64,000 bases of DNA from a phage: sequence record NC_135728.1; one strand, written 5' to 3'. Positions 64 to 42,477 of the stretch are shown piece after piece. The notes under the pieces were generated by a model that saw only the letters and a program-made list of their open reading frames with translations, was not told the DNA's origin and searched no databases. A program made the translations under genes and the position numbers. Each line of letters opens with the position of its first letter. Within the stretch, counting starts at the first letter, position 1.

Positions 64-642
64 TCAGCGTTCATAGTAAATCTTATTTAACATTACCTCA
101 TCTTTTGCAGAAAGAATACCGAAATATGCATCACCGAATCTACCTGCAACAACCTCTGCATGATACATCACTTCGTTAATATCGTCAAGAGTGATAACTG
201 GATGACCGTATCTCTCTGAGTATTGTCTCAGAGTGCGATGTAGAGAGTCATCATCATAGGCAGACTTTTTAATATCGCAAACACGACGAATAGCCTTGAT
301 GTCGAAAAACCCTGTACGATACCAACCAAGAAAAAGGTTTCGTGCAGTGTCAACATCTACATCAATACCATCAAGAACCTTATCTACAAGATAGCTGTCA
401 TCCTTTGGACCTGCTTCCTTAGTGCGAATGTAGTTGCCATCTTTTCCAGGTGACAGCTCCTTCTCATCACCAACCTGCATGCCATCATTTGGCGGTGTTA
501 ACCACTTATCCGGATGCTTACGATCACGAGCGTTAGAATGATTACGCTGGAAACCTGGCTTCCACTTGAAAGTTTTCTCCATCTGTTCTTCATTCTGATA
601 ACGTTTTGCAATCTTTTCACGGTCATCTTTGCGTGGACTCAT
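64..642 (-). CDS. hypothetical protein (192 aa)
   Basis: Track ORF; GAGGAGG Shine-Dalgarno about 6 nt upstream of ATG at 642; no recognisable motif. Confidence 0.5.
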   Translation of the reverse strand: MSPRKDDREKIAKRYQNEEQMEKTFKWKPGFQRNHSNARDRKHPDKWLTPPNDGMQVGDEKELSPGKDGNYIRTKEAGPKDDSYLVDKVLDGIDVDVDTARNLFLGWYRTGFFDIKAIRRVCDIKKSAYDDDSLHRTLRQYSERYGHPVITLDDINEVMYHAEVVAGRFGDAYFGILSAKDEVMLNKIYYER

Positions 643-774
643 AGCTGCCTCCTCTTCAAGTTATAGAAAAACTCACTGTATCGCTTTGTAACGAGCTTTT
701 CTATCAAACTGGTGCGATTGCCTTACTTGGTATAGTTTATATGGCTGTGGAGCGATTTAGGGGCCTCATTGTCC

Positions 775-1010
775 GTTTCCACACATAAACTTTATCCAAA
801 CTCGCGCGGGAATCTCTCAACCGACTCCTTACGGCGCTGGCAAGCTTTCGTCGGTGGTCCACATTAGTGCTCGGCCTTTGGCCTGCGCTATCGCTTCGCT
901 CCCACACATGTTAACAGACCTGCATGTATGCACTTCTGTTATTGTGTGCACTATGGAGGCCCGGCATCTCGCCCCTCGTAGGCGAGTGCCAATGAAGGGC
1001 CGACACTACC
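775..1010. other. GC-rich structured non-coding island (candidate ncRNA or regulatory RNA)
   Basis: About 235 nt with no ORF in any frame, visibly GC-richer than its surroundings; nested complementary segments, e.g. GGCCC..CTCGCC-N7-GGCGAG..GGGCC. Confidence 0.3.
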
Positions 1011-1029
1011 TATAGAAAGTAATAAATTT

Positions 1030-1100
1030 AAAACATGGTACTTAGGATCTAGTATATTCTACATAAGTTAAGTATATGTACTTAGTACCATAAGTACTAG
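1030..1100. repeat. AT-rich dyad-symmetry element
   Basis: GATCTAGTA ... TACTAGATC inverted repeat and GTACTTAG direct repeats in an AT-rich stretch. Confidence 0.4.
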
Positions 1101-1145
1101 ATCTTTTATTTTTTATTATTTAGTTATTTTAGTTATATTCTTTAT

Positions 1146-1228
1146 GTGTCCGTATCACGGACAGTTAGTGTCCGTATCACGGACAGATGTGTCCGCGTGA
1201 CGGACAGTAGTGTCCGTATCACGGACAG
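1146..1228. promoter_or_regulatory. array of four tandem palindromic sites TGTCCG-N5-CGGACA (operator- or centromere-like)
   Basis: Four copies at 21-22 bp spacing; three identical (central TATCA), one with central CGTGA. Confidence 0.6.
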
Positions 1229-1302
1229 TTAATAGTTTCTGTTCCATGGTGAACATAAAACATACAAATCCTTATAGTACAGATATTTAAGTTTTTACTG
1301 GT

Positions 1303-1653
1303 CTAACCAGTTGTTGACATTCGAATAACTTCTTCTGGTGGCAAAACTTTGGAAAATGTGCATCTTTTACCTCTCCCTTGTGTGGATGTTTCAACAACTC
1401 CTGCACATTCTAAAGTTTTAACGCACGCTGCTGCTTTTGTTTTCTTTATCCCAACATCTGCTGCAATTTTCCTTGTGCTTGGTGTGAAGTGTGAATTTCC
1501 TCCAAGCTTATACCAGTTGTGCAGGTAGCAGTATACAATCTTGTCATACAAGTCAAGAACAACAACCTCCCCAGTTGTGTCATTCAAAACTTTTGACATA
1601 GATAGTATTTCAAGGGGGACTTTAAGATATAGCAGCTTATCCCCATCTTTCAT
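1303..1653 (-). CDS. small putative DNA-binding protein (HTH-like segment)
   Basis: 116 aa ORF; segment STRKIAADVGIKKTKAAACVKTLECAGVV resembles a helix-turn-helix; adjacent to the palindrome array. Confidence 0.45.
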   Translation of the reverse strand: MKDGDKLLYLKVPLEILSMSKVLNDTTGEVVVLDLYDKIVYCYLHNWYKLGGNSHFTPSTRKIAADVGIKKTKAAACVKTLECAGVVETSTQGRGKRCTFSKVLPPEEVIRMSTTG

Positions 1654-1700
1654 ATCTCCTGATTCTCCTTGTGTGGCAATTTTCTTTAAAATAGCAGGGA

Positions 1701-2255
1701 TTACTCCCTGCTGTCAATATCAAAACTCATTGCAATACGGTATGCCTCTTCTAATGGTAAGAGTCTCCCCCACACATCCCAACCGACATCAAACTGTCTA
1801 CCAAACAACTGTTGTGTGGTTCCGTGAGCATGACCGAACAGTTGGACTGATCCGTGATGCTTTCTGTTCCACGTTGCAAACTGGTAATGGCTCATACAGA
1901 TCAAATTCTTGTTGTGGCGAAGCTCGTAATAATCTACAACCTCATGACCGAACTCTTTCATAATTCTGACAGTCGTCCTTGTGTCATGGTTGCCACGAAC
2001 AAGAATAATATGTCCGTTCAACATATTTAGAATATCTGGAAGTAAGTTGTTGATATTCTTATCATTAGTGCACGCAATATCTCCCAGGTGGAACACAGTG
2101 TCTGCAGGTGACACAACTGAGTTCCACTCGGTGATGATTCCCGCATTCATACTGTCAAGATTGTGATCATATTGAGATCTGTGTTTTTGACATGAATCAA
2201 ACTCCATGACCCGCTGGTGGAGAAAGTGCGTATCGCTTGTTACAAAGTATTTCAT
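1701..2255 (-). CDS. calcineurin-like metallophosphoesterase
   Basis: Motifs SDTHF (DxH), HLGDIxxxN, GNHD, GHxH; start set at MKYFVTSDTHF with GAGGAA RBS (track ORF runs further upstream into the next gene). Confidence 0.75.
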   Translation of the reverse strand: MKYFVTSDTHFLHQRVMEFDSCQKHRSQYDHNLDSMNAGIITEWNSVVSPADTVFHLGDIACTNDKNINNLLPDILNMLNGHIILVRGNHDTRTTVRIMKEFGHEVVDYYELRHNKNLICMSHYQFATWNRKHHGSVQLFGHAHGTTQQLFGRQFDVGWDVWGRLLPLEEAYRIAMSFDIDSRE

Positions 2256-2262
2256 ACATTCC

Positions 2263-2673
2263 TCATTTAAGTTTAATGCAGTTTTTAAGCTGGCGTTCCA
2301 TACGATCCACAACCTTGTCTGGAACATCATGAATGCTTTTATTACCGTGGCGGTTTTCAACCACGATTACGGTATAACTATACCCATGACTGATTGCCAT
2401 GTCAACATATTCCTGCACATGTTTTTCTTTTGTAAACGTATTACTTACCACGATACGGTCGTATCCCATACACATCATATCTTCTACGTTATCTTTGCAC
2501 CATTTTGCTGCGAGTGTTACTTTACTTGCATCCCAGTTGTAATTGCCGTCATCGTCATACCAAAACATGTCATTCTCAAAATGTGGATACAGACCTTCTA
2601 AAGATAGCGCATTTGCCAGTGTTGATTTGCCAGACCCTGGCAGACCACGCACGATATATAGCATTTTAGACAT
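2263..2673 (-). CDS. P-loop kinase, polynucleotide 5'-kinase-like
   Basis: Walker A GLPGSGKST right after the start, as in T4 Pnk kinase domain; GGAGGA RBS before ATG at 2673. Confidence 0.6.
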   Translation of the reverse strand: MSKMLYIVRGLPGSGKSTLANALSLEGLYPHFENDMFWYDDDGNYNWDASKVTLAAKWCKDNVEDMMCMGYDRIVVSNTFTKEKHVQEYVDMAISHGYSYTVIVVENRHGNKSIHDVPDKVVDRMERQLKNCIKLK

Positions 2674-2701
2674 AGCAATCCTCCGTTTTAATTTTAATGA
2701 T

Positions 2702-2730
2702 AGTATACCTAACTGTTTTGTTAATTTCAA
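2702..2730 (-). promoter_or_regulatory. sigma70-like promoter (TTGAAA-17-TATACT) for the kinase/phosphatase operon
   Basis: Read on minus strand just upstream of the kinase RBS. Confidence 0.45.
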
Positions 2731-2791
2731 GTGTTGACACCAGGTTGTTTGTGTGGCAGGATAGACTGACAAAATGACAAATGAGGAACGT

Positions 2792-3709
2792 ATGATGAAG
2801 TATTTTAATGCAGATGACCTAGTAGACAAAGGTCTTGTAACCAGTCGGTATTATCCAGATCTTGGATTAAAGATCTATAAATATGCCAGAAAAGTATTCT
2901 ACAACAATCTGTGGCATTTGTCTCCGCGTTTACTGGAGTGCCGAGGTATTGTTGTTGGCAATGAGGGGAATGTTGTGGCATGGCCTTTCACAAAAGTATT
3001 CAACTTAGGAGAAAACTCCACCAACCTACCGGACAGTAAACTTGTTACTGCGGTAGAGAAAAAGAACGGATTCCTCGGTGTGGTATCATCTCATAAAGGT
3101 GAACTATTGTTCTCAACAACCGGGTCTCTTGATTCCCCATATTGTAACCTCGCAAAAGAAACCATCAGGGAGCAATGTGGTAATTTAGATCTTATCAAGA
3201 AGGTTATGGGCAATGAAAACATGACATTCATGTTTGAAATTTGCCACCCTTCAGATCCGCATATTGTTCAGGAAGATCATGGCGCATATTTGATAGGTTG
3301 CAGATATAATGATTCTGGAATAATGCTACCAGAAGCAGCTTTAGATGGGATTGCCAAATACCTTGGTGCAAAACGTCCTCACACTGTGCGTGAAATTCCG
3401 TTCAGCTATGCAAAAGAATTAGCTGCAGAAACAAGAGGTGAAGGGTATATGATTCGTAAGCCTTACTACCCTTATGATCTGCAGCTGAAGATCAAGTCTC
3501 CATACTATCTGGCACGGAAGGCAGTAATGAGGGGTAAAGCTTGGAAGATTTGGGATGATGATATCTTTAAACGTGTTGACGAAGAGTTTTACGGTATGGT
3601 AAAATTTATTCGTAGCAACTATACAGAAGATGTGTGGAATTGCTTATTAGAGCAGGAGCGTCGTGAGATACTGGACTACTATTTCCACAACGAGGACTAT
3701 ATGCAATGA
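2792..3709 (+). CDS. ATP-dependent RNA ligase-like nucleotidyltransferase (Rnl1/Trl1-type KxNG motif)
   Basis: Motif I-like EKKNGFLGVV (cf. Trl1 KANG, T4 Rnl1 KEDG); GAGGAA RBS before ATG 2792; divergent from the kinase/phosphatase genes. Confidence 0.55.
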   Translation: MMKYFNADDLVDKGLVTSRYYPDLGLKIYKYARKVFYNNLWHLSPRLLECRGIVVGNEGNVVAWPFTKVFNLGENSTNLPDSKLVTAVEKKNGFLGVVSSHKGELLFSTTGSLDSPYCNLAKETIREQCGNLDLIKKVMGNENMTFMFEICHPSDPHIVQEDHGAYLIGCRYNDSGIMLPEAALDGIAKYLGAKRPHTVREIPFSYAKELAAETRGEGYMIRKPYYPYDLQLKIKSPYYLARKAVMRGKAWKIWDDDIFKRVDEEFYGMVKFIRSNYTEDVWNCLLEQERREILDYYFHNEDYMQ

Positions 3710-4056
3710 AGAAGTGGATTGTGTGGCTTGATGATTTTAGAGATCCGTCAGATTATGGACTCCCAGACGCTCTGTGGCTAAAGAATTCTTCTGAGTTTAT
3801 GGATTTTCTTAATGATAAGAGAAAGCTCTACAGACGCGTATCTGAGTGGTATTTTGACAATGATCTAGGTGAAGTGCTTGAAGGGTACGACTGCTTCTCT
3901 GCGCTAGAGGAGAAATTTGTATTCGGAAAGCCACCACTTATTGACAACGTGATTATTTTCGTGCATACTTCTAATCCATCGGCAGCTCGTAAATTTATGC
4001 TTGCTGCTGACTCATTCAAGAAGTTTGGAATAGAGATCAAACAAAACATCTACTAA
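3706..4056 (+). CDS. hypothetical protein (116 aa)
   Basis: ATGA start/stop overlap with the ligase gene; no recognised motif. Confidence 0.5.
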   Translation: MKKWIVWLDDFRDPSDYGLPDALWLKNSSEFMDFLNDKRKLYRRVSEWYFDNDLGEVLEGYDCFSALEEKFVFGKPPLIDNVIIFVHTSNPSAARKFMLAADSFKKFGIEIKQNIY

Positions 4057-4064
4057 GGACATTT

Positions 4065-4826
4065 ATGCGACGACTGATTATTATCTCCGGTGCTGGTTTG
4101 AGCGCTGAATCTGGTATTCCAACTTTCCGATCTGGTAGCACTGCAATGTGGGAGAATTTCAGCATCGATGAGGTGTGCAACATCCACACCTTTGCCAAGA
4201 ACTACTATAAGGTGCATGACTTTTACAATGCACGTCGTGTAGCTCTGGGCAGTGTTGATCCTAACCTTGCACATCTTCGGATCGCTGAGTGGTATTCCCG
4301 CTGGCCTGGTCGTGTGATCAACCTTACCACCAATGTAGATGATTTGCTGGAGCGTGCTGGTGTAAAACATGAAGATATTTTACATGTCCACGGGTATTTG
4401 CCTGAAATCACCTACGAAGATGCTGAAGGTAACGATGTAATTAAAAATATCGGATACACGGAGGTAGATACAGGCAAGTATACCTGGGTTAAGCCTAATG
4501 TAGTGTTCTTCGGTGAGGTTGCTCCTAAGTATACAGACATGTATGACCTGTTGACATCTCTCACAAGCAATGATATGGTGATCCTGGTAGGTTGTTCTAA
4601 CACAGTTATTAATTTTAACTGGGAATTGTTTCCTGCTACTTGTAAAGGCACAAAACTGCTGATTGTAAACAAGTATGACTCGCAGAGTGCAGATGGAAGT
4701 GGCATTTCACGTAGCGACCTTTATCAATATGAGGATCGCGGGATCCCTGTATGGTTTAACGGTGCTGTTGACGCTTTCTCTGATAAAGCATTTATTGAAA
4801 CTGTAGAAAACTTTATGGAACTTTAA
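4065..4826 (+). CDS. Sir2-family NAD-dependent deacylase / ADP-ribosyltransferase homolog
   Basis: GAGLSAESGIPTFR (sirtuin GAGxSxxxGIPxFR), TTNVDDL, catalytic-His region LHVHGY, VVFFGE; no Zn-ribbon cysteines. Confidence 0.8.
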   Translation: MRRLIIISGAGLSAESGIPTFRSGSTAMWENFSIDEVCNIHTFAKNYYKVHDFYNARRVALGSVDPNLAHLRIAEWYSRWPGRVINLTTNVDDLLERAGVKHEDILHVHGYLPEITYEDAEGNDVIKNIGYTEVDTGKYTWVKPNVVFFGEVAPKYTDMYDLLTSLTSNDMVILVGCSNTVINFNWELFPATCKGTKLLIVNKYDSQSADGSGISRSDLYQYEDRGIPVWFNGAVDAFSDKAFIETVENFMEL

Positions 4827-4839
4827 AAGGAGACCTTTA

Positions 4840-5553
4840 ATGCTGAATACTAAACTGATCGACAACCTGGAAAAACTGTCTCAGCCTGAAAACTACCTTT
4901 GGTCTGCCAACTGGGTGGAAAACTGGAACCGTGTGGCAGCTAAAGTGAAAAAATCATACACACCATTCGAATTACAGCTTAGCTTCATTGAGGAAGAGTT
5001 CAATGAGGTTTTGGAAGAGCTGGAGAAAGGTGATGGTGGAGATCACCTGCTAAAAGAGGCCTGCGATCTTCACGTTGTCACAAGTTATGCCGCTTATCTT
5101 GTTAATGACAATCACGAAAAGTGGTCAAACCTGTTTGATAATCCACGAGGTCTTAAGTTCAAGATCGGTGAGTTCTATGATACACTGATCGCTGCGAAAA
5201 ACACATCCAAGCAAAGAGCGTCAGCTTACCGCTTAGCGGAGTTGTCAACAGCTTTGCTGTTCCAGCTTCGCGGAGATGTGTGTGGGATGATGCGGAAGGT
5301 TCTCAAATCTAATGACAGTAAGTTTGCACGGATCAACCATCTACGGCATTCACACGGTGCCAGTGCAGATATGCCTGCTGAACAACTCATCGAGTTGGAG
5401 ATTAAAGATCTTGAGCGTCGTTTTGGTGGTCGCTACGAAGGTTTCGTTGCTAAAGAGGAGTTCTACAACGGCAATAAAGTTATTATATTCCTTGACAGTA
5501 AAGGTAAGATTATGAAGCCTTCGAGCTTCAAGGATGTAACAGAGTATATTTAA
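4840..5553 (+). CDS. hypothetical protein; weak MazG-like NTP pyrophosphohydrolase resemblance
   Basis: AAGGAG RBS; segment IEEEFNEVLEELEKGDGGDHLLKEACDL resembles the MazG EExxE..D helix; assignment tentative. Confidence 0.5.
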   Translation: MLNTKLIDNLEKLSQPENYLWSANWVENWNRVAAKVKKSYTPFELQLSFIEEEFNEVLEELEKGDGGDHLLKEACDLHVVTSYAAYLVNDNHEKWSNLFDNPRGLKFKIGEFYDTLIAAKNTSKQRASAYRLAELSTALLFQLRGDVCGMMRKVLKSNDSKFARINHLRHSHGASADMPAEQLIELEIKDLERRFGGRYEGFVAKEEFYNGNKVIIFLDSKGKIMKPSSFKDVTEYI

Positions 5554-5559
5554 CAACAT

Positions 5560-5586
5560 AGCCGGGATTACCCGGCTTTACTTATT
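5560..5586 (+). terminator. rho-independent terminator
   Basis: AGCCGGG-ATTA-CCCGGCT hairpin followed by TTTACTTATT. Confidence 0.6.
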
Positions 5587-5615
5587 ATGGAAAGTATGCA
5601 GTGAGGTAGTCAGTT

Positions 5616-5924
5616 ATGTACAAGCATTCCAGAGATCTTGAAAAAGATGCTGTGTTTGGCGACCAGATGAAGGAGCTGATCAAACTTATTGGTAGAATGG
5701 AAGATAAGTTTGACACTAAAATCTACATCGATAGCAAGATCTTCAACCACAAAATATGGACAAATGTGTGTGTTGGGCTACATGGTGATAAAGATATTGT
5801 AAATTTGGTTGTAATAAAGTTCATAGTGTGGCAGAATAGGACTATACGTTATTCCGATCCACACTTACTTGTTTATCCTATAAAAGACCTACTACAGAAG
5901 GAGGACTGCAATGCCGTTATTTAA
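5616..5924 (+). CDS. hypothetical protein
   Basis: Track ORF with GAGGT RBS. Confidence 0.5.
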   Translation: MYKHSRDLEKDAVFGDQMKELIKLIGRMEDKFDTKIYIDSKIFNHKIWTNVCVGLHGDKDIVNLVVIKFIVWQNRTIRYSDPHLLVYPIKDLLQKEDCNAVI

Positions 5925-6180
5925 TCTTGCTAAACCTGTAGAAGCACACCAGTTTGACGGAAGCTCTTCATCAGTATCTGATCTGCAACGGTGGATTGAT
6001 ACTGGTGTGTTTACATCGTCGCCTGTTCGGACCAGAGATATTCGTCGCATGTGTGAGCTTATCGAGCCGTTTGGTAACCTTGTCTTGTACCAGGGAGATT
6101 GGCTAGTTGACTTTATGGGAGACTGGTTGGTAATGAGTAAAGAAGAGATGTTTAAAATTTTTAAGGAAGAGGCCGAGTAA
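5911..6180 (+). CDS. hypothetical protein
   Basis: AGGAGG RBS; stop overlaps the ligase start (TAATG). Confidence 0.5.
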   Translation: MPLFNLAKPVEAHQFDGSSSSVSDLQRWIDTGVFTSSPVRTRDIRRMCELIEPFGNLVLYQGDWLVDFMGDWLVMSKEEMFKIFKEEAE

Positions 6181-7463
6181 TGCATCAAATCAAAACAACA
6201 CTGTACGCACTGAACAAAGATGGCAGCTACCAACAGTGGAAAGTATTCACTGATGGCGAAAAGGTTATCGTAGAGTTTGGCAAGCTTGACGGTAAATTGC
6301 AGTACAAAGAGACGGTATGCACACCTAAGAACGTAGGTCGTGCCAACGAGACTACAGCTGAGCAACAGGCCGAGCTTGAGGCTATCAGCAAGTGGGAAAA
6401 ACAAGTCCGCCTGGGGTATGTTGAAAACATGGAAGATTGCGAGCAGGGTGTTGATCTTTTACCCATGCTGGTGCATGACTACCTGAAGCGTGGCAAGGCA
6501 CTTAAATTACCTTGCTGGATCTTGCGTAAGTTAGATGGTCTTCGTCTGCTTGTTGTTTTCCAAAATGGTGAGCCTAAATTTATTTCCCGTGGTAATAAGT
6601 CCTACCCTATTCAAGGAAAGCTTTTAGAGCAACTTCGTTCTTTCCATTCTACCACTAGGATTAAACAACTTGATGGGGAACTATACATTCATGGTCTTCC
6701 TTTGCAGAAAATAGTGTCTCTTGCTAAACGGTGGCGCACACAGGAAGAGATTCAGGCCGAGATCGATAAAGACTATGAGGCAGATAAAAAACGCCGTCAT
6801 GCAGCAATTAAGGCAGGCTTATCAACATACAAAAACTTCAACAAGGTAGATATTCCTGTCGATGTTGAGCCTGTTCGTGATGATTTGCGTTACGGCGGGT
6901 ACTGTAGCTACGATCTGGAGTATCACATTTTTGATATTCCTAGCGACAAGGTGTGGTGGGATCCAGAAACAGAGTCTGGGCGCTGCAAGGATCTTATGGA
7001 TGCAGAGGATACCGTTACCACTCTGATGCTTGATCATATCAAGGTTGTTGACGCAGAGCTTGCGTACACAGTTGATCATTGCGAAGAATCTGTTGGTATA
7101 TTCATGTCCGAAGGATATGAAGGTACTATCATGCGTAATTTCTGCGGTAAATATGAGTATGGTCAGCGAACATCTGAAGCATTGAAATGGAAAAAGTTCA
7201 ACGACGCAGAGGTGAAAGTTATTGACGTTGAGAAAGATAAGAATGATGAAGGTGTTCTTATCTGTGTTGACAAGGAAGGTGTTGTTGTTAAAATGAAGAT
7301 GAAAGGCACGCACGAGGAGCGTAGCTATGACAGGATGCAGGAAATGATCGGCAAGTTTGTCACCTTCAAATACCAAGCAAGGACAGAAGACAACAACTAC
7401 CAATTCCCTGTCGGTATCTGCGTCCGAAATGTTAACCCAGACACTTGGGAGGTGCTTGAATGA
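6180..7463 (+). CDS. ATP-dependent DNA ligase
   Basis: Motif I RKLDGLR (KxDGxR), motif III-like QLDGELYIHG, EGYEGTIMR. Confidence 0.8.
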   Translation: MHQIKTTLYALNKDGSYQQWKVFTDGEKVIVEFGKLDGKLQYKETVCTPKNVGRANETTAEQQAELEAISKWEKQVRLGYVENMEDCEQGVDLLPMLVHDYLKRGKALKLPCWILRKLDGLRLLVVFQNGEPKFISRGNKSYPIQGKLLEQLRSFHSTTRIKQLDGELYIHGLPLQKIVSLAKRWRTQEEIQAEIDKDYEADKKRRHAAIKAGLSTYKNFNKVDIPVDVEPVRDDLRYGGYCSYDLEYHIFDIPSDKVWWDPETESGRCKDLMDAEDTVTTLMLDHIKVVDAELAYTVDHCEESVGIFMSEGYEGTIMRNFCGKYEYGQRTSEALKWKKFNDAEVKVIDVEKDKNDEGVLICVDKEGVVVKMKMKGTHEERSYDRMQEMIGKFVTFKYQARTEDNNYQFPVGICVRNVNPDTWEVLE

Positions 7464-7586
7464 TGTAGGAAGGTTCAGCAGGTAACGGTAGCCAATTGAA
7501 TGATGGTTTTCAATCGGCACCTACATAACCACACTGTGTAGTGTTGTTGATTGTGTTAGTTATGAGTAAACTGGAGAGTATGAAAA

Positions 7587-8057
7587 ATGAAACTTGATAA
7601 AAATGTTCAACGAAAAGCTTTCTTGGATATGATCGCATATTCGGAAGGCACAGATAATGGTAGGCAACCCACTAAGGATCGGGGATACGATGTCATAGTT
7701 GGTGGCAAGCTGTTTAGCGATTACAGCAAGCATCCAGGTGTGTACGTTAAGCTAAATGCTAAACTTACCTCCTCCGCTGCTGGTCGTTACCAGGTTTTGG
7801 AGAAGTTTGCTAAACACTACATGGAACAGTTAGGATTGCCAGATTTTGGCCCTGCCAGTCAGGACAAGATTGCGTTGCAACTGATCCGTGAGTGCAAGGC
7901 TCTCGCCGACATTGACGAAGGGCGTATCCACGAGGCTATCCATAAATGCCGTTCCCGCTGGGCTTCGTTACCTGGTGCTGGATATGGTCAGCATGAACAG
8001 AAGATCGAGAAGTTGATCGAGGTGTTTAAAAAGGCAGGCGGTGTTGTCCTTGATTGA
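7587..8057 (+). CDS. endolysin, lambda R-type lytic transglycosylase
   Basis: Near-colinear with lambda R: QRKAFLDMIAYSEGTDNGRQ, GYDVIVGG, RYQVL, WASLPGAGYGQ. Confidence 0.9.
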   Translation: MKLDKNVQRKAFLDMIAYSEGTDNGRQPTKDRGYDVIVGGKLFSDYSKHPGVYVKLNAKLTSSAAGRYQVLEKFAKHYMEQLGLPDFGPASQDKIALQLIRECKALADIDEGRIHEAIHKCRSRWASLPGAGYGQHEQKIEKLIEVFKKAGGVVLD

Positions 8058-8060
8058 TCA

Positions 8061-8089
8061 TTGACATAACCACAAGGACGTGGTATTGT
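8061..8089 (+). promoter_or_regulatory. sigma70-like promoter TTGACA-17-TATTGT with palindromic spacer
   Basis: Spacer contains CCACAAGGACGTGG. Confidence 0.45.
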
Positions 8090-8120
8090 TACCTCATAAA
8101 ATGTTTAGGAGGGCTTAACC

Positions 8121-8327
8121 ATGAAAGATTTTCTGTTGGCAATTTTGTTCATGGCAGCATGTCTGGCCTGTGGTGTCGTGTTTGCAGGTGAAACAGCGTA
8201 TCTTGTCGATGTATATCGGGACAATGGTAAACGTATTTGCCTTTATGAGACAAGTCAAGGTGAGCTCTACGAGCTTGTGAAACAAGGCGAGGCTGGATCT
8301 TGTCCTCGCACCCATTTCTTTGAATGA
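8121..8327 (+). CDS. small lipoprotein (possible spanin-like lysis accessory)
   Basis: AGGAGG RBS; N-terminal signal with lipobox-like LACG; directly downstream of the endolysin. Confidence 0.5.
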   Translation: MKDFLLAILFMAACLACGVVFAGETAYLVDVYRDNGKRICLYETSQGELYELVKQGEAGSCPRTHFFE

Positions 8328-8336
8328 GGAGAATAC

Positions 8337-8801
8337 GTGGAAGACGGACGTTTAATGAAGTCTGAACGCAGGCTTATTGTGCAACTGATCCCAGAAACAG
8401 CTTGGTATAATAACCTCCGAAACGCTGTGAAGAAGAGTGAGTGGGATAAGATCCGTAAGAAGTGCTACAGAGAAGCCAACTACACTTGCGAGGTGTGCGG
8501 AGGTAAAGGCAGCAAACATCCAGTGGAGTGTCATGAACTTTACACTTTCGAAGAAGGAGTGATCCGTCTTGTCGGACTGATAGCGTTGTGCCCAGACTGT
8601 CACACATCGGTGCATCCTGGGTTAGCAAATATCCGTGGAAAGTATGCTCAGGCAGTTAATCAGTTGGCTAAGGTGAATAAGATCACCAAGGGTATGGCAG
8701 AGGCGTATTACCGAGACTGCTTTGCAGAGTGGCGTGAGCTTAGTAAAGTTCCAGAATGGAAGACTGACTTTTCGTGGATAGAGGGTTACCTTGATGGCTA
8801 A
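8337..8801 (+). CDS. HNH endonuclease
   Basis: CEVCGG ... HPVECHE ... CPDCH zinc/HNH-type motif; GTG start after GAGGAG. Confidence 0.65.
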   Translation: MEDGRLMKSERRLIVQLIPETAWYNNLRNAVKKSEWDKIRKKCYREANYTCEVCGGKGSKHPVECHELYTFEEGVIRLVGLIALCPDCHTSVHPGLANIRGKYAQAVNQLAKVNKITKGMAEAYYRDCFAEWRELSKVPEWKTDFSWIEGYLDG

Positions 8802-9084
8802 GAAACCTGTAAAAGAGAAATTTGATAAGACAGCTTTTGTATTCGATACACCTTTGGACGATATCATCAGAGGTATGCAAGCCTTGTATCGGAAGTCTGA
8901 ATCTGAGCAGCTGTCGGAATCAGAGCTTTACTGGTTGGGTTGGTGGGAGCTTAATCTACCTAAAGCTGAAAGCTCTGATCTAAAAACCGTTAAAACGTGT
9001 GCCCAAGAAAATGCTGCACTTGGAATTTACCACAAAAGAAAAAGATCAACAAAAAGCTCTCCAAGAAAGACTAAAAAGTCTTGA
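8794..9084 (+). CDS. hypothetical protein, basic C-terminus
   Basis: Track ORF; ATG at 8794 after GAGGG. Confidence 0.45.
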   Translation: MAKKPVKEKFDKTAFVFDTPLDDIIRGMQALYRKSESEQLSESELYWLGWWELNLPKAESSDLKTVKTCAQENAALGIYHKRKRSTKSSPRKTKKS

Positions 9085-37828: not shown

Positions 37829-38066
37829 CTTGAATGCTGGCGACCATGTTGTTGTCAAATGCATCGGAGATTATCTTGGATTCACAATCGGCAATACTTA
37901 TGAGGCGGTAGTGGCGAAGGTTTATCATGATAAAGTCCTCAGTCTTGTATTTGACTGCGATGATGATGGGGATGACCGATACGTCTGTGAGGTGCTGGCA
38001 CGAGACGATAGTGAAGACCAGAAATTCCTGGTTATTGAACTGAACGGTATTTTTGTAGAACGTTAA
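37815..38066 (+). CDS. hypothetical acidic protein
   Basis: ATG after AAGGAG (track start is further upstream). Confidence 0.5.
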   Translation: MTKIDLNAGDHVVVKCIGDYLGFTIGNTYEAVVAKVYHDKVLSLVFDCDDDGDDRYVCEVLARDDSEDQKFLVIELNGIFVER

Positions 38067-38094
38067 TTTAAAACAACATAAGGAGACTCTTACT

Positions 38095-38400
38095 ATGGCT
38101 AAATCTAAAGTTGAACTGTTCACCTCTCTTCCTTCTGACACTGCAGAACGTGATCGCCTTCGCAAAACAATCGAAGAACTGGTGGAACTCCAGCTTCAGA
38201 TTAAAGATCTGAAAGATGCCATCAAGGATATCATTCTTGTTGAGAAGCAGGATCATCTGTATTCTCCTAAATTCATCAAATCTTTGGTGGCTACAGAGTT
38301 TGATATCCGCTACGAAGCTGAAAAACGTCGCGCTAAGATTGAAGAAGAGGTTGAGCACATGTCTGAGGCAGACATTCTGTTCAAACGCTCTGTAGAATAA
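38095..38400 (+). CDS. hypothetical protein (coiled-coil-like)
   Basis: AAGGAGA RBS. Confidence 0.5.
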   Translation: MAKSKVELFTSLPSDTAERDRLRKTIEELVELQLQIKDLKDAIKDIILVEKQDHLYSPKFIKSLVATEFDIRYEAEKRRAKIEEEVEHMSEADILFKRSVE

Positions 38401-38406
38401 TATGGC

Positions 38407-38436
38407 AGAGGGGCTACGGCCCCTCTTTCACTATTT
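38407..38436 (+). terminator. rho-independent terminator
   Basis: AGAGGGGC-TACG-GCCCCTCT followed by TTCACTATTT. Confidence 0.65.
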
Positions 38437-38452
38437 GCAAAAGGAACCAGCT

Positions 38453-38779
38453 ATGAGAATGCCAATCACTGTGAAAGAGCTAAATGAACGTGATGCAGGT
38501 GGTCTATGGCCTGCACGAAAAATCCGCTGCGTCTATATGAAAGAGAATCTTGAACATCTTGATCAACAGATCAAGGTCGGTGATATTTTCGAGGTCTTCT
38601 ACTCCAATCGTCGCAACTGGGAAACCATTCAGCCTTCTGGTTTTGTTCTTGCCAAACTTGACACTGGAGAAGTGATTATCCCTGGGTTGGATATTGTCTT
38701 CGAAATTATCCAGGAGTGGGATCCAGATAAGATTAGATACGAAGAATTATTCGGTAAAGGTATTATCAAACCTGTGTGA
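38453..38779 (+). CDS. hypothetical protein
   Basis: Start placed after the terminator hairpin (MRMPITV...). Confidence 0.45.
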   Translation: MRMPITVKELNERDAGGLWPARKIRCVYMKENLEHLDQQIKVGDIFEVFYSNRRNWETIQPSGFVLAKLDTGEVIIPGLDIVFEIIQEWDPDKIRYEELFGKGIIKPV

Positions 38780-38787
38780 GGTGGATT

Positions 38788-39087
38788 ATGTCTACAAAGG
38801 CGGCTAAATACTCCTATATGCCATCAACCTCTGCAGAGGTAGACTTTAGTTTCGATGTATTTCCACTGTTTGAGGTGGTTCTGGCATACCCTACAATACT
38901 ATCTACTCCTGAATCACTTGTGCCTGTTAAGTTGCAGAACGCTATGCATTCCATGCACTACAACAATAAATGTAGGCACAGATGGTGTCAGGACGAGGAA
39001 AAAGATTTGGATAGTTTGAGGGATTTTGACAGTCACCTTTTGACACCTTTCAGCTACTCCAACCTTGATAAGCCCTCATGGGTATAG
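38788..39087 (+). CDS. hypothetical protein
   Basis: ATG after GAGGTGGA. Confidence 0.45.
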   Translation: MSTKAAKYSYMPSTSAEVDFSFDVFPLFEVVLAYPTILSTPESLVPVKLQNAMHSMHYNNKCRHRWCQDEEKDLDSLRDFDSHLLTPFSYSNLDKPSWV

Positions 39088-39111
39088 CAAAATATCAAAT
39101 TTAAGACACCT

Positions 39112-39141
39112 AGGACGCTCTGTGGCGTCCTTTTCTTTATC
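39112..39141 (+). terminator. rho-independent terminator
   Basis: AGGACGC-TCTGTG-GCGTCCT followed by TTTTCTTTATC. Confidence 0.6.
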
Positions 39142-39300
39142 TGGTGCACGATTGCATACCTTGGGTAGTTAATCTCATTACAGAGCGTTTAAGAGCTTCC
39201 TACAAACAACTCCATATTTCGAGCGTAGCGAGAACGCACGTCCGTTTTGACCCAAATCACCATACGCTCGGATTTTAACCAAACCCTCGCGGCGTTTCTG

Positions 39301-39329
39301 TTGACACATTGCCGCTCCAGTGATAGTAT
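39301..39329 (+). promoter_or_regulatory. sigma70-like promoter TTGACA-17-TAGTAT
   Basis: Consensus -35, good -10. Confidence 0.5.
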
Positions 39330-39354
39330 CCACACATAGTCTGGAGAATATGGA

Positions 39355-39660
39355 GTGCACAATGAAAACATTGTCCGAAGTTTTGGTGGTGATCCTGATG
39401 ATCATTACGTCCATAGCGGCTGTTGCCGGAATACTCACGGGTGGAACATGATAAACACACATGCATCTGAAGAGACATCCAAAGGAGTGACTATATGTCC
39501 CTTGACTGAGCCAGTGCAAGAGGAAAACTTCGATTCTGAAGATTCTCCATCTTTGCTCCAGGTAGATCCTGAGGCTGATGACCTAACGTGGGAAGACATC
39601 GTAGATATCTGGTTCTCTATTATGCCTGAGCACGAAGAGTTCAGGGGTGGTAGACTATGA
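39355..39660 (+). CDS. hypothetical acidic protein (start uncertain: GTG 39355 or ATG 39448)
   Basis: GGAGAA RBS before GTG; alternative ATG 39448 overlaps the stop of the micro-ORF below. Confidence 0.4.
   Translation: MHNENIVRSFGGDPDDHYVHSGCCRNTHGWNMINTHASEETSKGVTICPLTEPVQEENFDSEDSPSLLQVDPEADDLTWEDIVDIWFSIMPEHEEFRGGRL
39362..39451 (+). CDS. alternative hydrophobic micro-ORF, 29 aa
   Basis: GGAGTG RBS; MKTLSEVLVVILMIITSIAAVAGILTGGT; mutually exclusive with the GTG-39355 reading. Confidence 0.3.
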   Translation: MKTLSEVLVVILMIITSIAAVAGILTGGT

Positions 39661-39781
39661 AGCACCGAGCCCACACAGGTTCCTCATGCTAAAGCATGGC
39701 CTGAAGAGGCAAACGTGTATAATTCCAGCGTATTGGGACGTATAAAACCCAGTTCACACTCTCATTTCCAGAGGAGATTTC

Positions 39782-39997
39782 ATGAAGATAGAAATATTTG
39801 GTGGGGCTGACAACACTCGTGGCCTGATTTACCTTGAATTCGATGAATCATACCTGCCAGAGGTGTTAAATATGGACTCTGTTGCTGAGGCTTTGGGAGT
39901 AAGTCCTAAAGATCTCCACTCTGGTGCTGAGATTGATGGTTGGGAGGAGACCATGAACATCGATTTCAGTGAAGTAGGGGATGAACCACTGGACTGA
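39782..39997 (+). CDS. small acidic protein
   Basis: GAGGAG RBS; last rightward gene before the non-coding hub. Confidence 0.5.
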   Translation: MKIEIFGGADNTRGLIYLEFDESYLPEVLNMDSVAEALGVSPKDLHSGAEIDGWEETMNIDFSEVGDEPLD

Positions 39998-40346
39998 CAC
40001 ACAATTAGTTGCCCGGCTAAAGTGCTGGGAGCACCCATAACACATCTTTCAACTAAATTTCCTACCACCACAATCACTTACCTCCCACACATGACTGTTT
40101 GCTTGTTTAGTGAGCAGTCATGCCTTGACATTCTTGCCTATCCTGATAAAATTAAGTTCTTCTCTTTTCTTTTACCGAGTAATTCGGGTTTTCTGTTCTC
40201 TTCGGTTTGAAGGGGTATGGAGATACACCTGAGTGAACAGGGTGAACAACCGAACCATTGGCTATGGCATTAGCATGGCGAAGCGGACGGGTGACGAAAG
40301 AGGGGCCGGAGGACACCAGTCACTGCCATATGATATATGGGTGATA

Positions 40347-40865
40347 ACCTGAAGAGTCTGAATAAGTGTTTAAGTACCAGTCAGAGGAAAAGGTGAATGG
40401 TAGCCGAAGGGGGAGGGGGGTTACCTGCTTCTGTAAACATGCATCTGAAATACTACTTTAGATAACCTGAACCTGCCTTTCTGACAAATATTCCCTATTA
40501 AACTTGAATTATTTATAGAAAATACCACAACACCACTTAAGTCTTTGATTTTACACACAAATCTTACAGATATTAAACCTCTCTATTTAACATACCTGTA
40601 ACATATACTATACTCCACCTGTCTGATCAATTTCCCCAACTACATCCCCATATTTTCCCTGTCTGTACTACCCCTGCCCCGCCGGGAGTCCCGTCATATC
40701 TGGCTTTCCAGCAAATATCACACCCACAAATATCATCACCTGAAGAGGGTTTCATCCCATAATACATGCCTTACCTGAAGAGCGCTTCATATACCCCGTA
40801 AATTTTTTAATTGACCCCCTCCCCGCCGCCGGAGGGGTTGGCTTTTCCCACACAAACCTGAAGAG
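40347..40865. repeat. dispersed direct repeats of ACCTGAAGAG (4 copies)
   Basis: Copies at about 40347, 40738, 40773, 40856; ACCTGAAC variant at about 40463. Confidence 0.5.
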
Positions 40866-41425
40866 TCAGCCAGAAATATCTGAACAGCCAGTTATACCAC
40901 GATTTTGTGCTTGTCCTACAGGAGTGCTTCCCTGTCAGGAGCCGGTAGCGACTGGAGTGCTGCCAGGCGGACGAAATGGGAATACTTCTCATTCTTATAA
41001 CAATTCTCAAATATCGAGGCAGTGAGGCAAATTAATAGGTGAGGCCGTTCACACAGTGGCACAACATTTGCAACCTATCTTGTGGGATTGAATGAGAATA
41101 CCTATCATTGTGAGAACTGTTATCATTACGGGCAATTTAACATAATACCCATTATGCGCACCACTGGCGATACATACAGGGATTTATAACATGAGTTACT
41201 GTTTACGTATATAACAATTATATTTCTTACTATTTGTGTGGGATATAGTTAGCAGCCGATAGATTAGATATTGACCTGCAGACTTCCAACCGTCTAGACG
41301 TCTAAACGCCCACACAACAAGGTTTATACATACATTACTGAATGTAAACAGGGCCGCAAAAATGCTACCATACAAGATTGTAAATTTTTCATGCAGCACT
41401 TGACAAAGAGGAGAAAAACTTGTCT

Positions 41426-41505
41426 GACACTTTAGACACAATAGTGACATAATATGACACCTTTGACACACTGGACACATTAAACATAATTGACATGCCT
41501 GACTG
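41426..41505. repeat. iteron-like array of GACA(C/T) repeats phased every 9-11 bp
   Basis: Eight copies: GACAC, GACACA, GACAT, GACAC, GACACA, GACACA, GACAT, GACT. Confidence 0.6.
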
Positions 41506-41540
41506 TTTACATAGCTAACTATTTACTAAAAAATGATAAG

Positions 41541-41852
41541 CCATGCCATTCGTTTGCATGATAAAGATTAGCAAGTTAATAATCTTTCGCTGGCTATGCC
41601 AGGTGACCTTTGGTCACCCCTTCGGGTGTTTCTATGACATAATATAAAAGCAGGGCAACTATTAGCAGATCATAGTTGCCTTGCTTGTTAACACCCTTGA
41701 GACGAAGGCTTTGCCTGAGTTTATGTCATGATTAACTAAATACAAGGCAACTATGATCTGATTAATAGTTTGCAGACAAACTATCACGGGGGTGATGGTT
41801 ACTGCTTTTATATTATGTCGCGACTCCGTCGCGCCATGCCATTCGTTTGCAT
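41541..41852. repeat. nested repeat complex: 19-bp direct repeat, 18-bp inverted repeat and internal palindromes
   Basis: CCATGCCATTCGTTTGCAT at 41541 and 41834; GACATAATATAAAAGCAG (41636) inverted at 41802; GGTGACC-TTT-GGTCACC; GGCAACTAT-N9-ATAGTTGCC. Confidence 0.6.
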
Positions 41853-42477
41853 AGTTGCCTTATTGTTACGAATAAAACAATTGCATTGTTAATGATTTCT
41901 TATCTTTCTCTTAGTCATCTAATGATTCCAGTCAGTCTAGTAATGTACAGTAAACATTAGACGACTAAAGATTTCCCTGTTTATGATAACTCACCGTGAT
42001 AATTTCAGGCTGTTTACTAAAAATGTTGACACCTAAGCTGATTTATGTTATGCAGTTTACACGAATAATTATTTTATGCAGGTATTGACTATTCCGTTAT
42101 TCTATGGTTGGAATAAATACTTAGCAGACTATAGAATGGTGAGCGTACGTAAATTCTGAGATCTGGCGGCTATAGTTATACTCGATTTTTCACGTAGAAC
42201 ACGCTTTTGTGAGTGTGTAAGTGTATGACTTATAAAGATTTTTAGTTGTTGACAAGATATTGAAGATGTGCATCAGGTTAAATTTTGTGCAATAGCGGCA
42301 TTACGTGCAATTCTGAGAGAGAAAACGGGTAAAAATGGCCCTGCTACCACAAGATGAAAGATTATGCAATAGTTATTTTTATATGTATATTTGTACAGTA
42401 GGGTTAATTGCTGGCTTGTTGATTATTCCACTTGCCAGGTGGGGCCGTTTGTGGTAGGAGAAATACAGACAAAAAGA

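Follow-up and report, generated by a model that had tools for sequence, protein, structure and literature searches.

Three adjacent genes in a vequintavirus

The DNA analysed here, a 64,000-nt stretch of phage sequence (record NC_135728.1; hereafter the window), carries three adjacent genes that encode a metallophosphoesterase, a P-loop kinase and an RNA ligase-like protein. Their open reading frames (ORFs) all lie inside positions 1701–3709, two on one strand and the third on the other:

1701–2255, minus strand: binuclear metallophosphoesterase, 184 amino acids (aa); Pfam Metallophos and phrog_547; predicted 2',3'-cyclic phosphate / 3'-end healing enzyme
2263–2673, minus strand: stand-alone P-loop polynucleotide 5'-kinase-like protein, 136 aa; Pfam AAA_33, phrog_2071 and phrog_505
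2674–2794, no strand: divergent intergenic region with back-to-back promoter-like sites, which are consensus matches only
2795–3709, plus strand: predicted ATP-dependent RNA ligase of Rnl1/Trl1 fold, 304 aa; PF09511, phrog_562 and fold matches

A first-pass annotation, made from the sequence alone, had read these genes as a split, Pnkp-like RNA repair module directed against anticodon nucleases. As set out below, we think it likely that the three enzymes carry out T4-like healing and sealing of RNA. The window is ~98% identical to Escherichia phages MiataMamis, Pr121LW and EmilHeitz (genus Vequintavirus, rV5-like myoviruses), and its first 8 kb have matches in 128 phage records. The triad was already annotated in these relatives: the GenBank record of EmilHeitz labels the genes 'putative phosphoresterase', 'polynucleotide kinase' and 'RNA ligase'.

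The kinase starts at ATG 2673, preceded by a GGAGG Shine-Dalgarno sequence, and the phosphoesterase at ATG 2255, with a GAGGA Shine-Dalgarno sequence and only 7 nt past the kinase stop; both starts are internal to the longest ORF. From this spacing the two genes appear to be co-transcribed leftward and are probably translationally coupled. For the ligase, the start at 2774 given by the first-pass annotation is probably 21 nt too early. ATG 2795 is the most likely start, with 2792 possible, because a GAGGA Shine-Dalgarno sequence lies at 2783–2787 and only 2795 is conserved in relatives: EmilHeitz reads ATA where the window has 2792, and a viral contig with a 90% identical ligase (L002) keeps 2795 as its sole start. 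As a separate matter of record, the GenBank RNA ligase coding sequence of EmilHeitz (MZ501062.1) begins with ATA (L001 5259–5261), and the true ATG lies 3 nt further on, corresponding to window position 2795.

The divergent layout is real, with phosphoesterase and kinase on the minus strand, the ligase on the plus strand and 121 bp between them. This intergenic region holds two sigma-70-like -35 hexamers, 4 bp apart and pointing in opposite directions. The minus-strand site consists of TTGAAA (2730..2725), 17 nt and TATACT (2707..2702), with 10 of 12 consensus matches; the plus-strand site, read from the sequence, consists of TTGACA (2735–2740), a 17-nt spacer ending in TGG, and CAGGAT (2758–2763). 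Two blocks of the region, TCAAGTGTTGAC and TGTGTGGCA, including the -35 block, are kept in L002. Because a promoter scan of the region did not give significantly more promoter-like sites than expected (22 against 14.6 +/- 4.3), the promoter assignment is based on position and on conservation in this one relative. The shared divergent promoter proposed in the first-pass annotation thus gains back-to-back -35 hexamers and a conserved block, and remains a pair of consensus matches.

Families and catalytic residues of the three proteins

Searches with hidden Markov models placed each protein over its curated Pfam threshold and gave a strong PHROG match, so the three enzyme classes had been named correctly. 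The motifs cited for them were found as TSDTHF (DxH) and RGNHD (GNHD) in the phosphoesterase, GLPGSGKST in the kinase and KKNG (KxNG) in the ligase; 'GDxxN' was misread, the actual sequence being GDIACTN.

The phosphoesterase matched PF00149 Metallophos with 25.0 bits (cutoff 21.5) and phrog_547 at 1e-51. Among 64 sequences, made up of the window protein and 63 viral homologues, the metal motifs D8, H10, G58-D59, G88-N89-H90, H123 and G141-H142-x-H144 are each retained by 95% or more, and the ligands of a binuclear metal centre (D8, H10, D59, N89, H123, H142 and H144) are all present in the window protein. H90 is the counterpart of the phosphate-contacting H264 of Clostridium thermocellum Pnkp (CthPnkp). 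The closest solved structure in a profile search was Aquifex aq_1665 (PDB 1xm7, E = 2e-22), followed by the diesterase GpdQ, and neither lambda phosphatase nor the CthPnkp phosphatase gave a profile match at E <= 0.1. Judged by its residues, the enzyme probably opens 2',3'-cyclic phosphates.

The kinase matched PF13671 AAA_33 with 38.5 bits (cutoff 27), phrog_2071 at 4e-57 and phrog_505, polynucleotide kinase, at 5e-10. It is one of a very large group of stand-alone kinases, each ~130 aa long, for which at least 7,990 matches were counted. Residues G10, G13, G15, K16 and T18 of its P-loop GLPGSGKST are invariant or nearly so. NCBIfam offered no informative name for it, nor for the cREC and MazG-like proteins described below. 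PDB searches with the single kinase or ligase sequence returned nothing useful, and family profiles were required. The kinase profile matched Pnkp1, T4 Pnk, the tRNA kinase PSTK and the kinase of CthPnkp (CthPnk), and hhalign aligned it to the T4 Pnk kinase domain with 96.9% probability; residues 1–109 of the T4 sequence used there agree with the PDB chain in the profile alignment. The invariant D35 was aligned with T4 D35 by both hmmsearch and hhalign. In T4 this residue (D38 in the Clostridium enzyme) is the general base that activates the 5'-OH. The kinase sequence SNT was aligned with T4 SDT, and the near-invariant R108, in an ENRHG motif, with T4 R122. An AlphaFold2 model of the kinase (predicted local distance difference test score, pLDDT, 89.8) gave as top Foldseek matches 4jt2/4gp6 (CthPnk) and 1ly1/2ia5 (T4 Pnk), with template-modelling (TM) scores of 0.72–0.78, and then PSTK and Pnkp1. 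The best superpositions were those on CthPnk and T4 Pnk (TM 0.77–0.78), CthPnk ranking first in the PDB.

The ligase, which has the same amino-acid sequence as ORF75 of phage FFH2 (100% identity), matched PF09511 RNA_lig_T4_1 with 55.5 bits (E = 9e-15; gathering cutoff 28.3) and phrog_562, RNA ligase, at 1e-65. A profile built from 40 homologues matched the T4 Rnl1 structures 2c5u, 5tt6 and 9do4 over the nucleotidyltransferase domain (E = 2.5e-12). The alignment equates R51, K68, F70, K90, G93 and E149 with T4 R54, K75, F77, K99, G102 and E159, and further E217/G218 with E227/G228 and K233/K235 with K240/K242; all of these columns are invariant in the 40 homologues. These T4 residues are reportedly among those found essential by mutagenesis in the Shuman laboratory. 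K90, in motif I, is thereby aligned with K99, the adenylated lysine of T4 Rnl1. Motif I reads KKNG with an invariant Asn where T4 Rnl1 has KEDG, and we take the KxNG form to be shared with Trl1.

Structural comparison of the ligase (AlphaFold2 model, pLDDT 91.6) pointed the same way as the profiles. Its best PDB matches in Foldseek were the ligase domain of fungal Trl1 (Trl1-LIG) and T4 Rnl1, both at E ~1e-12. The Trl1 structures 9qw7, 6n0t, 8rbj and 6n67 scored E = 1e-12 to 7e-10 with TM 0.63–0.67, slightly higher in TM than T4 Rnl1. Rnl3, Rnl5 and Rnl2 came lower in the list, DNA ligases much further down, and no Pnkp-type ligase was among the 50 best fold matches. The NCBIfam RnlA equivalog model TIGR02308 gave 37.6 bits against a cutoff of 242. 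By profile and model, the phage ligase is of the Rnl1/Trl1 type, as the first-pass annotation had it, and specifically a member of a distant subfamily of that clade, not an RnlA equivalog. Some 65 helical residues follow motif V. Within this C-terminal domain R290 is invariant and R291 near-invariant in the 40 homologues, R290 irrespective of the presence of a Sir2 gene in the locus.

Conserved linkage in viruses and bacteria

Gene context argues most strongly for a shared function of the triad. We collected 80 IMG/VR loci from diverse viral contigs, picked solely by ligase homology (33–49% identity, except for the near-identical L002 at 90%) and taken with as much as 10 kb of flanking sequence to either side. 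A phosphoesterase homologue is present in 75 of the 80 and a kinase homologue in 67, almost all within ~4 kb of the ligase. The kinase count rises to 73 when the kinase profile is used, and several of the leftover loci are truncated by contig ends. At least six gene orders are represented (phosphoesterase-ligase-kinase in 38 loci, kinase-ligase-phosphoesterase in 11, ligase-phosphoesterase-kinase in 7 and ligase-kinase-phosphoesterase in 3, plus pairs). In two loci kinase and ligase form a single ORF of ~431 aa with the kinase N-terminal (L043, 2179–3471; L044, 574–1872). Since the linkage outlasts repeated rearrangement and is accompanied by fusion of two of the genes, it argues strongly for a joint function. 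Ligase homologues are also found in 767 cultured phage genomes.

Every arrangement is co-directional except that of the Escherichia coli vequintaviruses, where phosphoesterase and kinase are read leftward and the ligase rightward. Separate polypeptides are the norm for this family, so their 'unbundling', which the first-pass annotation had singled out, is no special feature; the divergent orientation alone is peculiar to the E. coli vequintaviruses.

Related genes are also found in bacteria. A scan of one genome per species yielded 57 loci (L082–L138) from Neisseria, Moraxella, Kingella, Eikenella, Cardiobacterium and relatives, most of which carry a kinase-ligase fusion of ~500 aa, again with the kinase N-terminal. 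In the Neisseria fusion (from locus L114, which spans 1862–8836) both AAA_33 and RNA_lig_T4_1 are over threshold; in that of Cardiobacterium (from locus L130, spanning 515–7592) AAA_33 falls just under the cutoff (24.4 against 27 bits). The phosphoesterase lies 1.4–3.6 kb downstream of the fusion in 50 of the 57 loci, and 33 of the 57 have a co-directional Ro60/TROVE gene upstream. YrlA Y-RNAs were found upstream of Ro60/TROVE in two (L114 and L130) of the five loci scanned with Rfam. Ro60 with Y-RNA is a recognised context of RNA quality control and repair, as in the Salmonella rsr-yrlBA-rtcBA operon. Because the bacterial homologues adjoin these components, the family is tied to RNA and not to DNA, and the bacterial loci look like Ro60/Y-RNA repair systems in which an ATP-dependent ligase replaces RtcB.

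The healing enzymes are not bound to one ligase. We traced three kinase homologues of other phage lineages to their contigs (L146–L148, 4001–7977; L143–L145, 4001–5094; L140–L142, 1709–4390 in L140). In one lineage the kinase is directly followed by a 217-aa phosphoesterase of the same family (E ~1e-48), with an Rnl2-type ligase (PF09414) 2 kb off; in the second it is again followed by a same-family phosphoesterase; in the third a HAD_PNKP phosphatase encoded on its own lies ~2 kb away. The kinase is thus recurrently accompanied by 3'-end phosphatases and RNA ligases of differing families and, because these pairings differ between lineages, the healing enzymes appear to be exchangeable modules.

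In the window the ligase is the first gene of a longer plus-strand unit, and the module is accordingly larger than the three genes of the first-pass annotation, which had missed the following:

3706–4056, plus strand: cREC (cyclic-phosphate-processing receiver-like) protein, 116 aa; PF20274 cREC_REC 2e-13, phrog_1479
4065–4826, plus strand: Sir2-family (sirtuin) protein, 253 aa; PF02146 1e-27, phrog_2162 9e-109
4840–5553, plus strand: MazG-like nucleotide pyrophosphohydrolase, 237 aa; phrog_671 1.5e-21
5560–5577, no strand: GC-rich hairpin, terminator-like on both strands; 7-bp stem and T-rich tail, a consensus match only

The cREC ATG overlaps the ligase TGA as ATGA, the Sir2 gene begins 8 nt past the cREC stop, and the MazG-like gene follows 13 nt past Sir2. 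The hairpin, AGCCGGGATTACCCGGCT, in which six of the stem pairs are G-C, closes this unit. The MazG-like protein had no Pfam or NCBIfam match, and two small ORFs had no Pfam match. Iyer et al. 2021 (PMC7824862) defined the cREC domain and its association with RNA ligases; Iyer et al. 2022 (PMC9503650) predicted that the sirtuin acts in the manner of KptA/Tpt1 and named a MazG-like enzyme within the rV5 neighbourhood. These three genes join the triad in 11–14 of 81 loci, only on vequintavirus-like contigs of ~145 kb, usually in the co-directional order phosphoesterase-ligase-cREC-kinase-Sir2-DNA ligase. The triad, not the sirtuin, is therefore the conserved core, and sirtuin, cREC and MazG are lineage-restricted additions. 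Since the usual order in these relatives is co-directional, the divergent layout of the window is best explained by a local inversion of the kinase-phosphoesterase pair.

Several other features of the region were recorded. An ATP-dependent DNA ligase gene (PF01068 plus an OB domain) lies at 6180–7463 on the plus strand, 2.5 kb downstream of the RNA ligase. No tRNA gene was found within the window. In close relatives six tRNA genes form a cluster on the phosphoesterase strand, ~3.5 kb past that gene and just left of where the window starts; it reads Pro, Met, Thr, Ser, Tyr and Arg in FFH2 (KJ190158.1 61919–62731; L139 2420–3232) and Pro, Ile, Thr, Lys, Tyr and Arg in EmilHeitz (L001 422–1233). 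The next minus-strand gene after the phosphoesterase encodes a DUF6945/HTH_36 protein (1303–1653), named 'replication initiation protein' by phrog_12838 and 'putative transcriptional regulator' in GenBank. It occurs together with the module only in EmilHeitz (L001), the closest relative, with a marginal match in L007 (E = 4e-4); the L002 contig ends before this position. Further away, the GC skew flips from strongly positive to negative near 39–40 kb of the window (region 38000–42000), which suggests a change of main coding strand, i.e. a boundary between transcription modules. Finally, 18 unannotated 'Campylobacter phage' records (e.g. MG065654 C15 and MG065666 A12a) are ~97.6% identical to the window over the whole of its first 8 kb, and their host labels look doubtful.

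Proposed function and comparison with known systems

The fold and family of each protein, its intact catalytic motifs, the conserved linkage and the gene fusions are direct observations. From these we infer an RNA substrate and an order of chemical steps. The phosphoesterase would clear the 2',3'-cyclic phosphate and the small P-loop kinase would phosphorylate the 5'-OH, both being made from a single leftward transcript. The Rnl1-like ligase would then self-adenylate on Lys90 of KKNG, pass the AMP to the 5'-phosphate and seal the break; it would be made first on the rightward transcript together with cREC, the sirtuin and the MazG-like enzyme, which probably supplement or vary 3'-end clean-up. 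The role in RNA healing and sealing proposed by the first-pass annotation is strongly backed by the conserved linkage, the fusions and the bacterial Ro60/Y-RNA context. Its further proposal, that the module counters anticodon nucleases and so protects the phage against host tRNA-cutting defences, is plausible by analogy with the T4 precedent. 'Split Pnkp' as an evolutionary statement, on the other hand, is ruled out by the fold list of the ligase, with no Pnkp-type enzyme in its best 50, and by the profile matches of the phosphoesterase, which put it in the aq_1665 branch; the likeness to Pnkp is one of analogy.

Several points weigh against T4-like healing and sealing. Some concern the phosphoesterase, whose nearest solved relative, aq_1665, is uncharacterised in function, and which lacks the GDxxDR arginine (Arg237 of CthPnkp), reading GDIACT(N) instead. 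In CthPnkp, R237 is important for monoesterase activity (Keppetipola and Shuman, PMC2190708), and metallophosphoesterases without such an arginine (MJ0936, Rv0805 and Mre11) are diesterases; a CthPnkp H189D mutant yields only the 2'-nucleoside monophosphate (2'-NMP) (PMC2190708). The activity of the phage enzyme may therefore be limited to opening the cyclic phosphate, and the invariant R26 might stand in for the lost arginine. For this enzyme NCBIfam also gave a weak match, at E = 3e-4 and far under the cutoff, to PdeM, a nuclease of DNA repair. In the kinase, T4 Arg38, which binds the acceptor, has no counterpart, its position being in an insertion that is missing from the kinase family, and T4 Arg126 of the lid is aligned to the non-conserved position 112, so that its counterpart is uncertain; a lid arginine may be present in a shifted register. 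In the ligase, T4 Lys119 is replaced by Thr110, and the C-terminal domain of T4 Rnl1 (~255–374) is missing: the alignment to 2c5u stops at T4 residue 249. That domain confers tRNA specificity on T4 Rnl1 (as cited in PMC12440814). Lastly, 32 of 81 loci have a homologue of the ATP-dependent DNA ligase no more than 10 kb away from the RNA ligase, and we found no experimental work in the literature on RNA repair by vequintaviruses or on these subfamilies of phosphoesterase, kinase and ligase.

The main alternative is an NAD+-dependent pathway like that of Trl1 and Tpt1, which is essentially the hypothesis of Iyer et al. 2022 (PMC9503650) and which we judge unlikely. Here the phosphoesterase and/or cREC would open the cyclic phosphate to a 3'-OH and a 2'-phosphate, the ligase would need or tolerate the 2'-phosphate, and the sirtuin would strip the junction 2'-phosphate with NAD+ as KptA/Tpt1 does. 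Besides the published prediction (PMC9503650), it draws on the rank of Trl1-LIG among the best fold matches, on the KxNG form of motif I, on the missing monoesterase arginine and the 2'-NMP product of CthPnkp H189D, and on the overlapping or abutting ligase, cREC and Sir2 genes in one transcription unit. Trl1 reads the 2'-phosphate with two C-terminal arginines (PMC12440814), and R290 and R291 could be their equivalents. Against it, R290 is invariant irrespective of Sir2, and no more than 11–14 of 81 loci have Sir2 and cREC alongside the triad; because the triad is near-universal there, its core must function without them. We also know of no sirtuin that acts as an RNA 2'-phosphotransferase. 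The full form of this scheme, with a 2'-phosphate-dependent Trl1-like ligase, cyclic phosphodiesterases and the sirtuin as a new NAD+-dependent RNA 2'-phosphotransferase, seems to us a long shot; if true, it would be a phage version of the fungal Trl1/Tpt1 tRNA-ligation pathway assembled from unrelated parts.

Other explanations fare worse. The triad could serve the phage's own RNA metabolism instead of counter-defence, through maturation or upkeep of phage tRNAs or through circularisation or processing of RNA. The six-tRNA cluster near the phosphoesterase in close relatives fits this, but the window contains no tRNA gene, nothing pointed to split or intron-containing tRNAs, and the triad spans many phage lineages as well as bacteria, there in a repair-type Ro60/Y-RNA context; we regard it as very unlikely. 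Slightly less probable still is action on DNA or mixed nucleic-acid ends, in which 3'-phosphate/5'-OH nicks in phage DNA would be processed together with the nearby ATP-dependent DNA ligase; we hold this to be highly improbable. T4 Pnkp is active on DNA too, and the DNA ligase gene downstream in the window and its recurrence in other loci, like the weak similarity to PdeM, would suit such a role. The sealing enzyme of the triad, however, has an Rnl1/Trl1 RNA-ligase fold with DNA ligases far down the list, the kinase-phosphoesterase pair also accompanies an Rnl2-type RNA ligase, and the bacterial homologues adjoin RNA quality-control components. That the genes are unrelated neighbours and that the ligase serves mainly to attach tail fibres is scarcely credible. 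The label 'RNA ligase and tail fiber protein attachment catalyst', carried by many GenBank records and by phrog_562, was transferred from T4 gp63, the linkage in several gene orders and the kinase fusion point to a joint enzymatic function, and the catalytic residues of the ligase are all invariant.

The locus itself is not new. Iyer, Burroughs, Anantharaman and Aravind (2022, Viruses 14:1977, PMC9503650) predicted an RNA repair function for the rV5 neighbourhood ('prototyped by Escherichia phage V5 and Proteus phage Mydo'). The locus they treated is the one analysed here, from phages of the same group, comprising a T4-like tRNA ligase, cREC, a nucleotide kinase, a sirtuin, a MazG-like enzyme and a calcineurin-like phosphoesterase, and all six members were found between 1701 and 5553 of the window. 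Their account is built around the sirtuin, with a phosphoesterase that is termed 'occasional', whereas here the triad is the widespread core; both analyses are computational. The locus was thus described computationally in 2022, and the finding as first stated adds nothing to that description or to existing annotation. What is added here is the triad as the core, its recurrence in six or more gene orders, in fused form and at bacterial loci with Ro60/Y-RNA, and a relation to Pnkp that is analogous, not derived.

Among characterised systems, the Salmonella rsr-yrlBA-rtcBA operon shares its Ro60/Y-RNA context with the bacterial homologues of the triad, which carry a kinase-ligase fusion and a phosphoesterase in place of RtcB and RtcA; unlike that operon, the phage window has neither Ro60 nor Y-RNA. 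Fungal and plant Trl1 (ligase-kinase-cyclic phosphodiesterase) works with Tpt1, and its ligase fold gives a match to the phage enzyme that equals or slightly exceeds that of T4 Rnl1. Trl1 also joins its ligase to a P-loop kinase, as do L043, L044 and the bacterial fusions, in the order ligase then kinase where the fusions described here have kinase then ligase. It employs a 2H cyclic phosphodiesterase and strictly needs a 2'-phosphate, recognised via the C-terminal R334/R337 (PMC12440814); Pfam and PHROG searches found no 2H domain in the phage locus, and the phage ligase is a separate protein, unlike the Trl1 fusion. Bacterial Pnkp (Clostridium thermocellum Pnkp/Hen1; Capnocytophaga Pnkp1-Rnl-Hen1) likewise combines kinase, metallophosphoesterase and ligase, but does so in one polypeptide with a Hen1 methyltransferase partner, where the phage has three genes on two strands; no Hen1-like or other methyltransferase gene is annotated within ~5 kb in EmilHeitz or FFH2 or appeared in the domain scans of neighbouring genes. 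The Pnkp phosphatase is lambda-phosphatase-like with an Arg237/His264 pair, and the phage enzyme is aq_1665-like without the arginine.

The closest parallel in logic is phage T4, whose Pnkp and Rnl1 also heal and then seal. The two kinases share the P-loop polynucleotide-kinase fold with an aligned catalytic Asp, and the ligases fall in one Pfam family with the Rnl1-essential residues kept. They differ in that T4 fuses its kinase to a phosphatase of the HAD (DxDxT) type, where the present phage has a lone kinase and a binuclear metallophosphoesterase for the 3' end, and in the ligase, which has ~65 C-terminal aa in place of 120, Thr in place of K119 and KKNG in place of KEDG. Many tRNA-cutting bacterial defences are now coming to light, among them PrrC, RloC, PARIS, retron effectors and Cas13, and to our knowledge phage counter-measures to them are known in detail for T4 only. 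Biochemistry on the triad would define three new enzyme subfamilies and reveal which of these defences phages escape. If T4-like healing and sealing is what the triad does, the module would be a second, widespread solution to the problem that T4 solves, built from other parts, with a metallophosphoesterase for the HAD phosphatase and a short Rnl1-like ligase.

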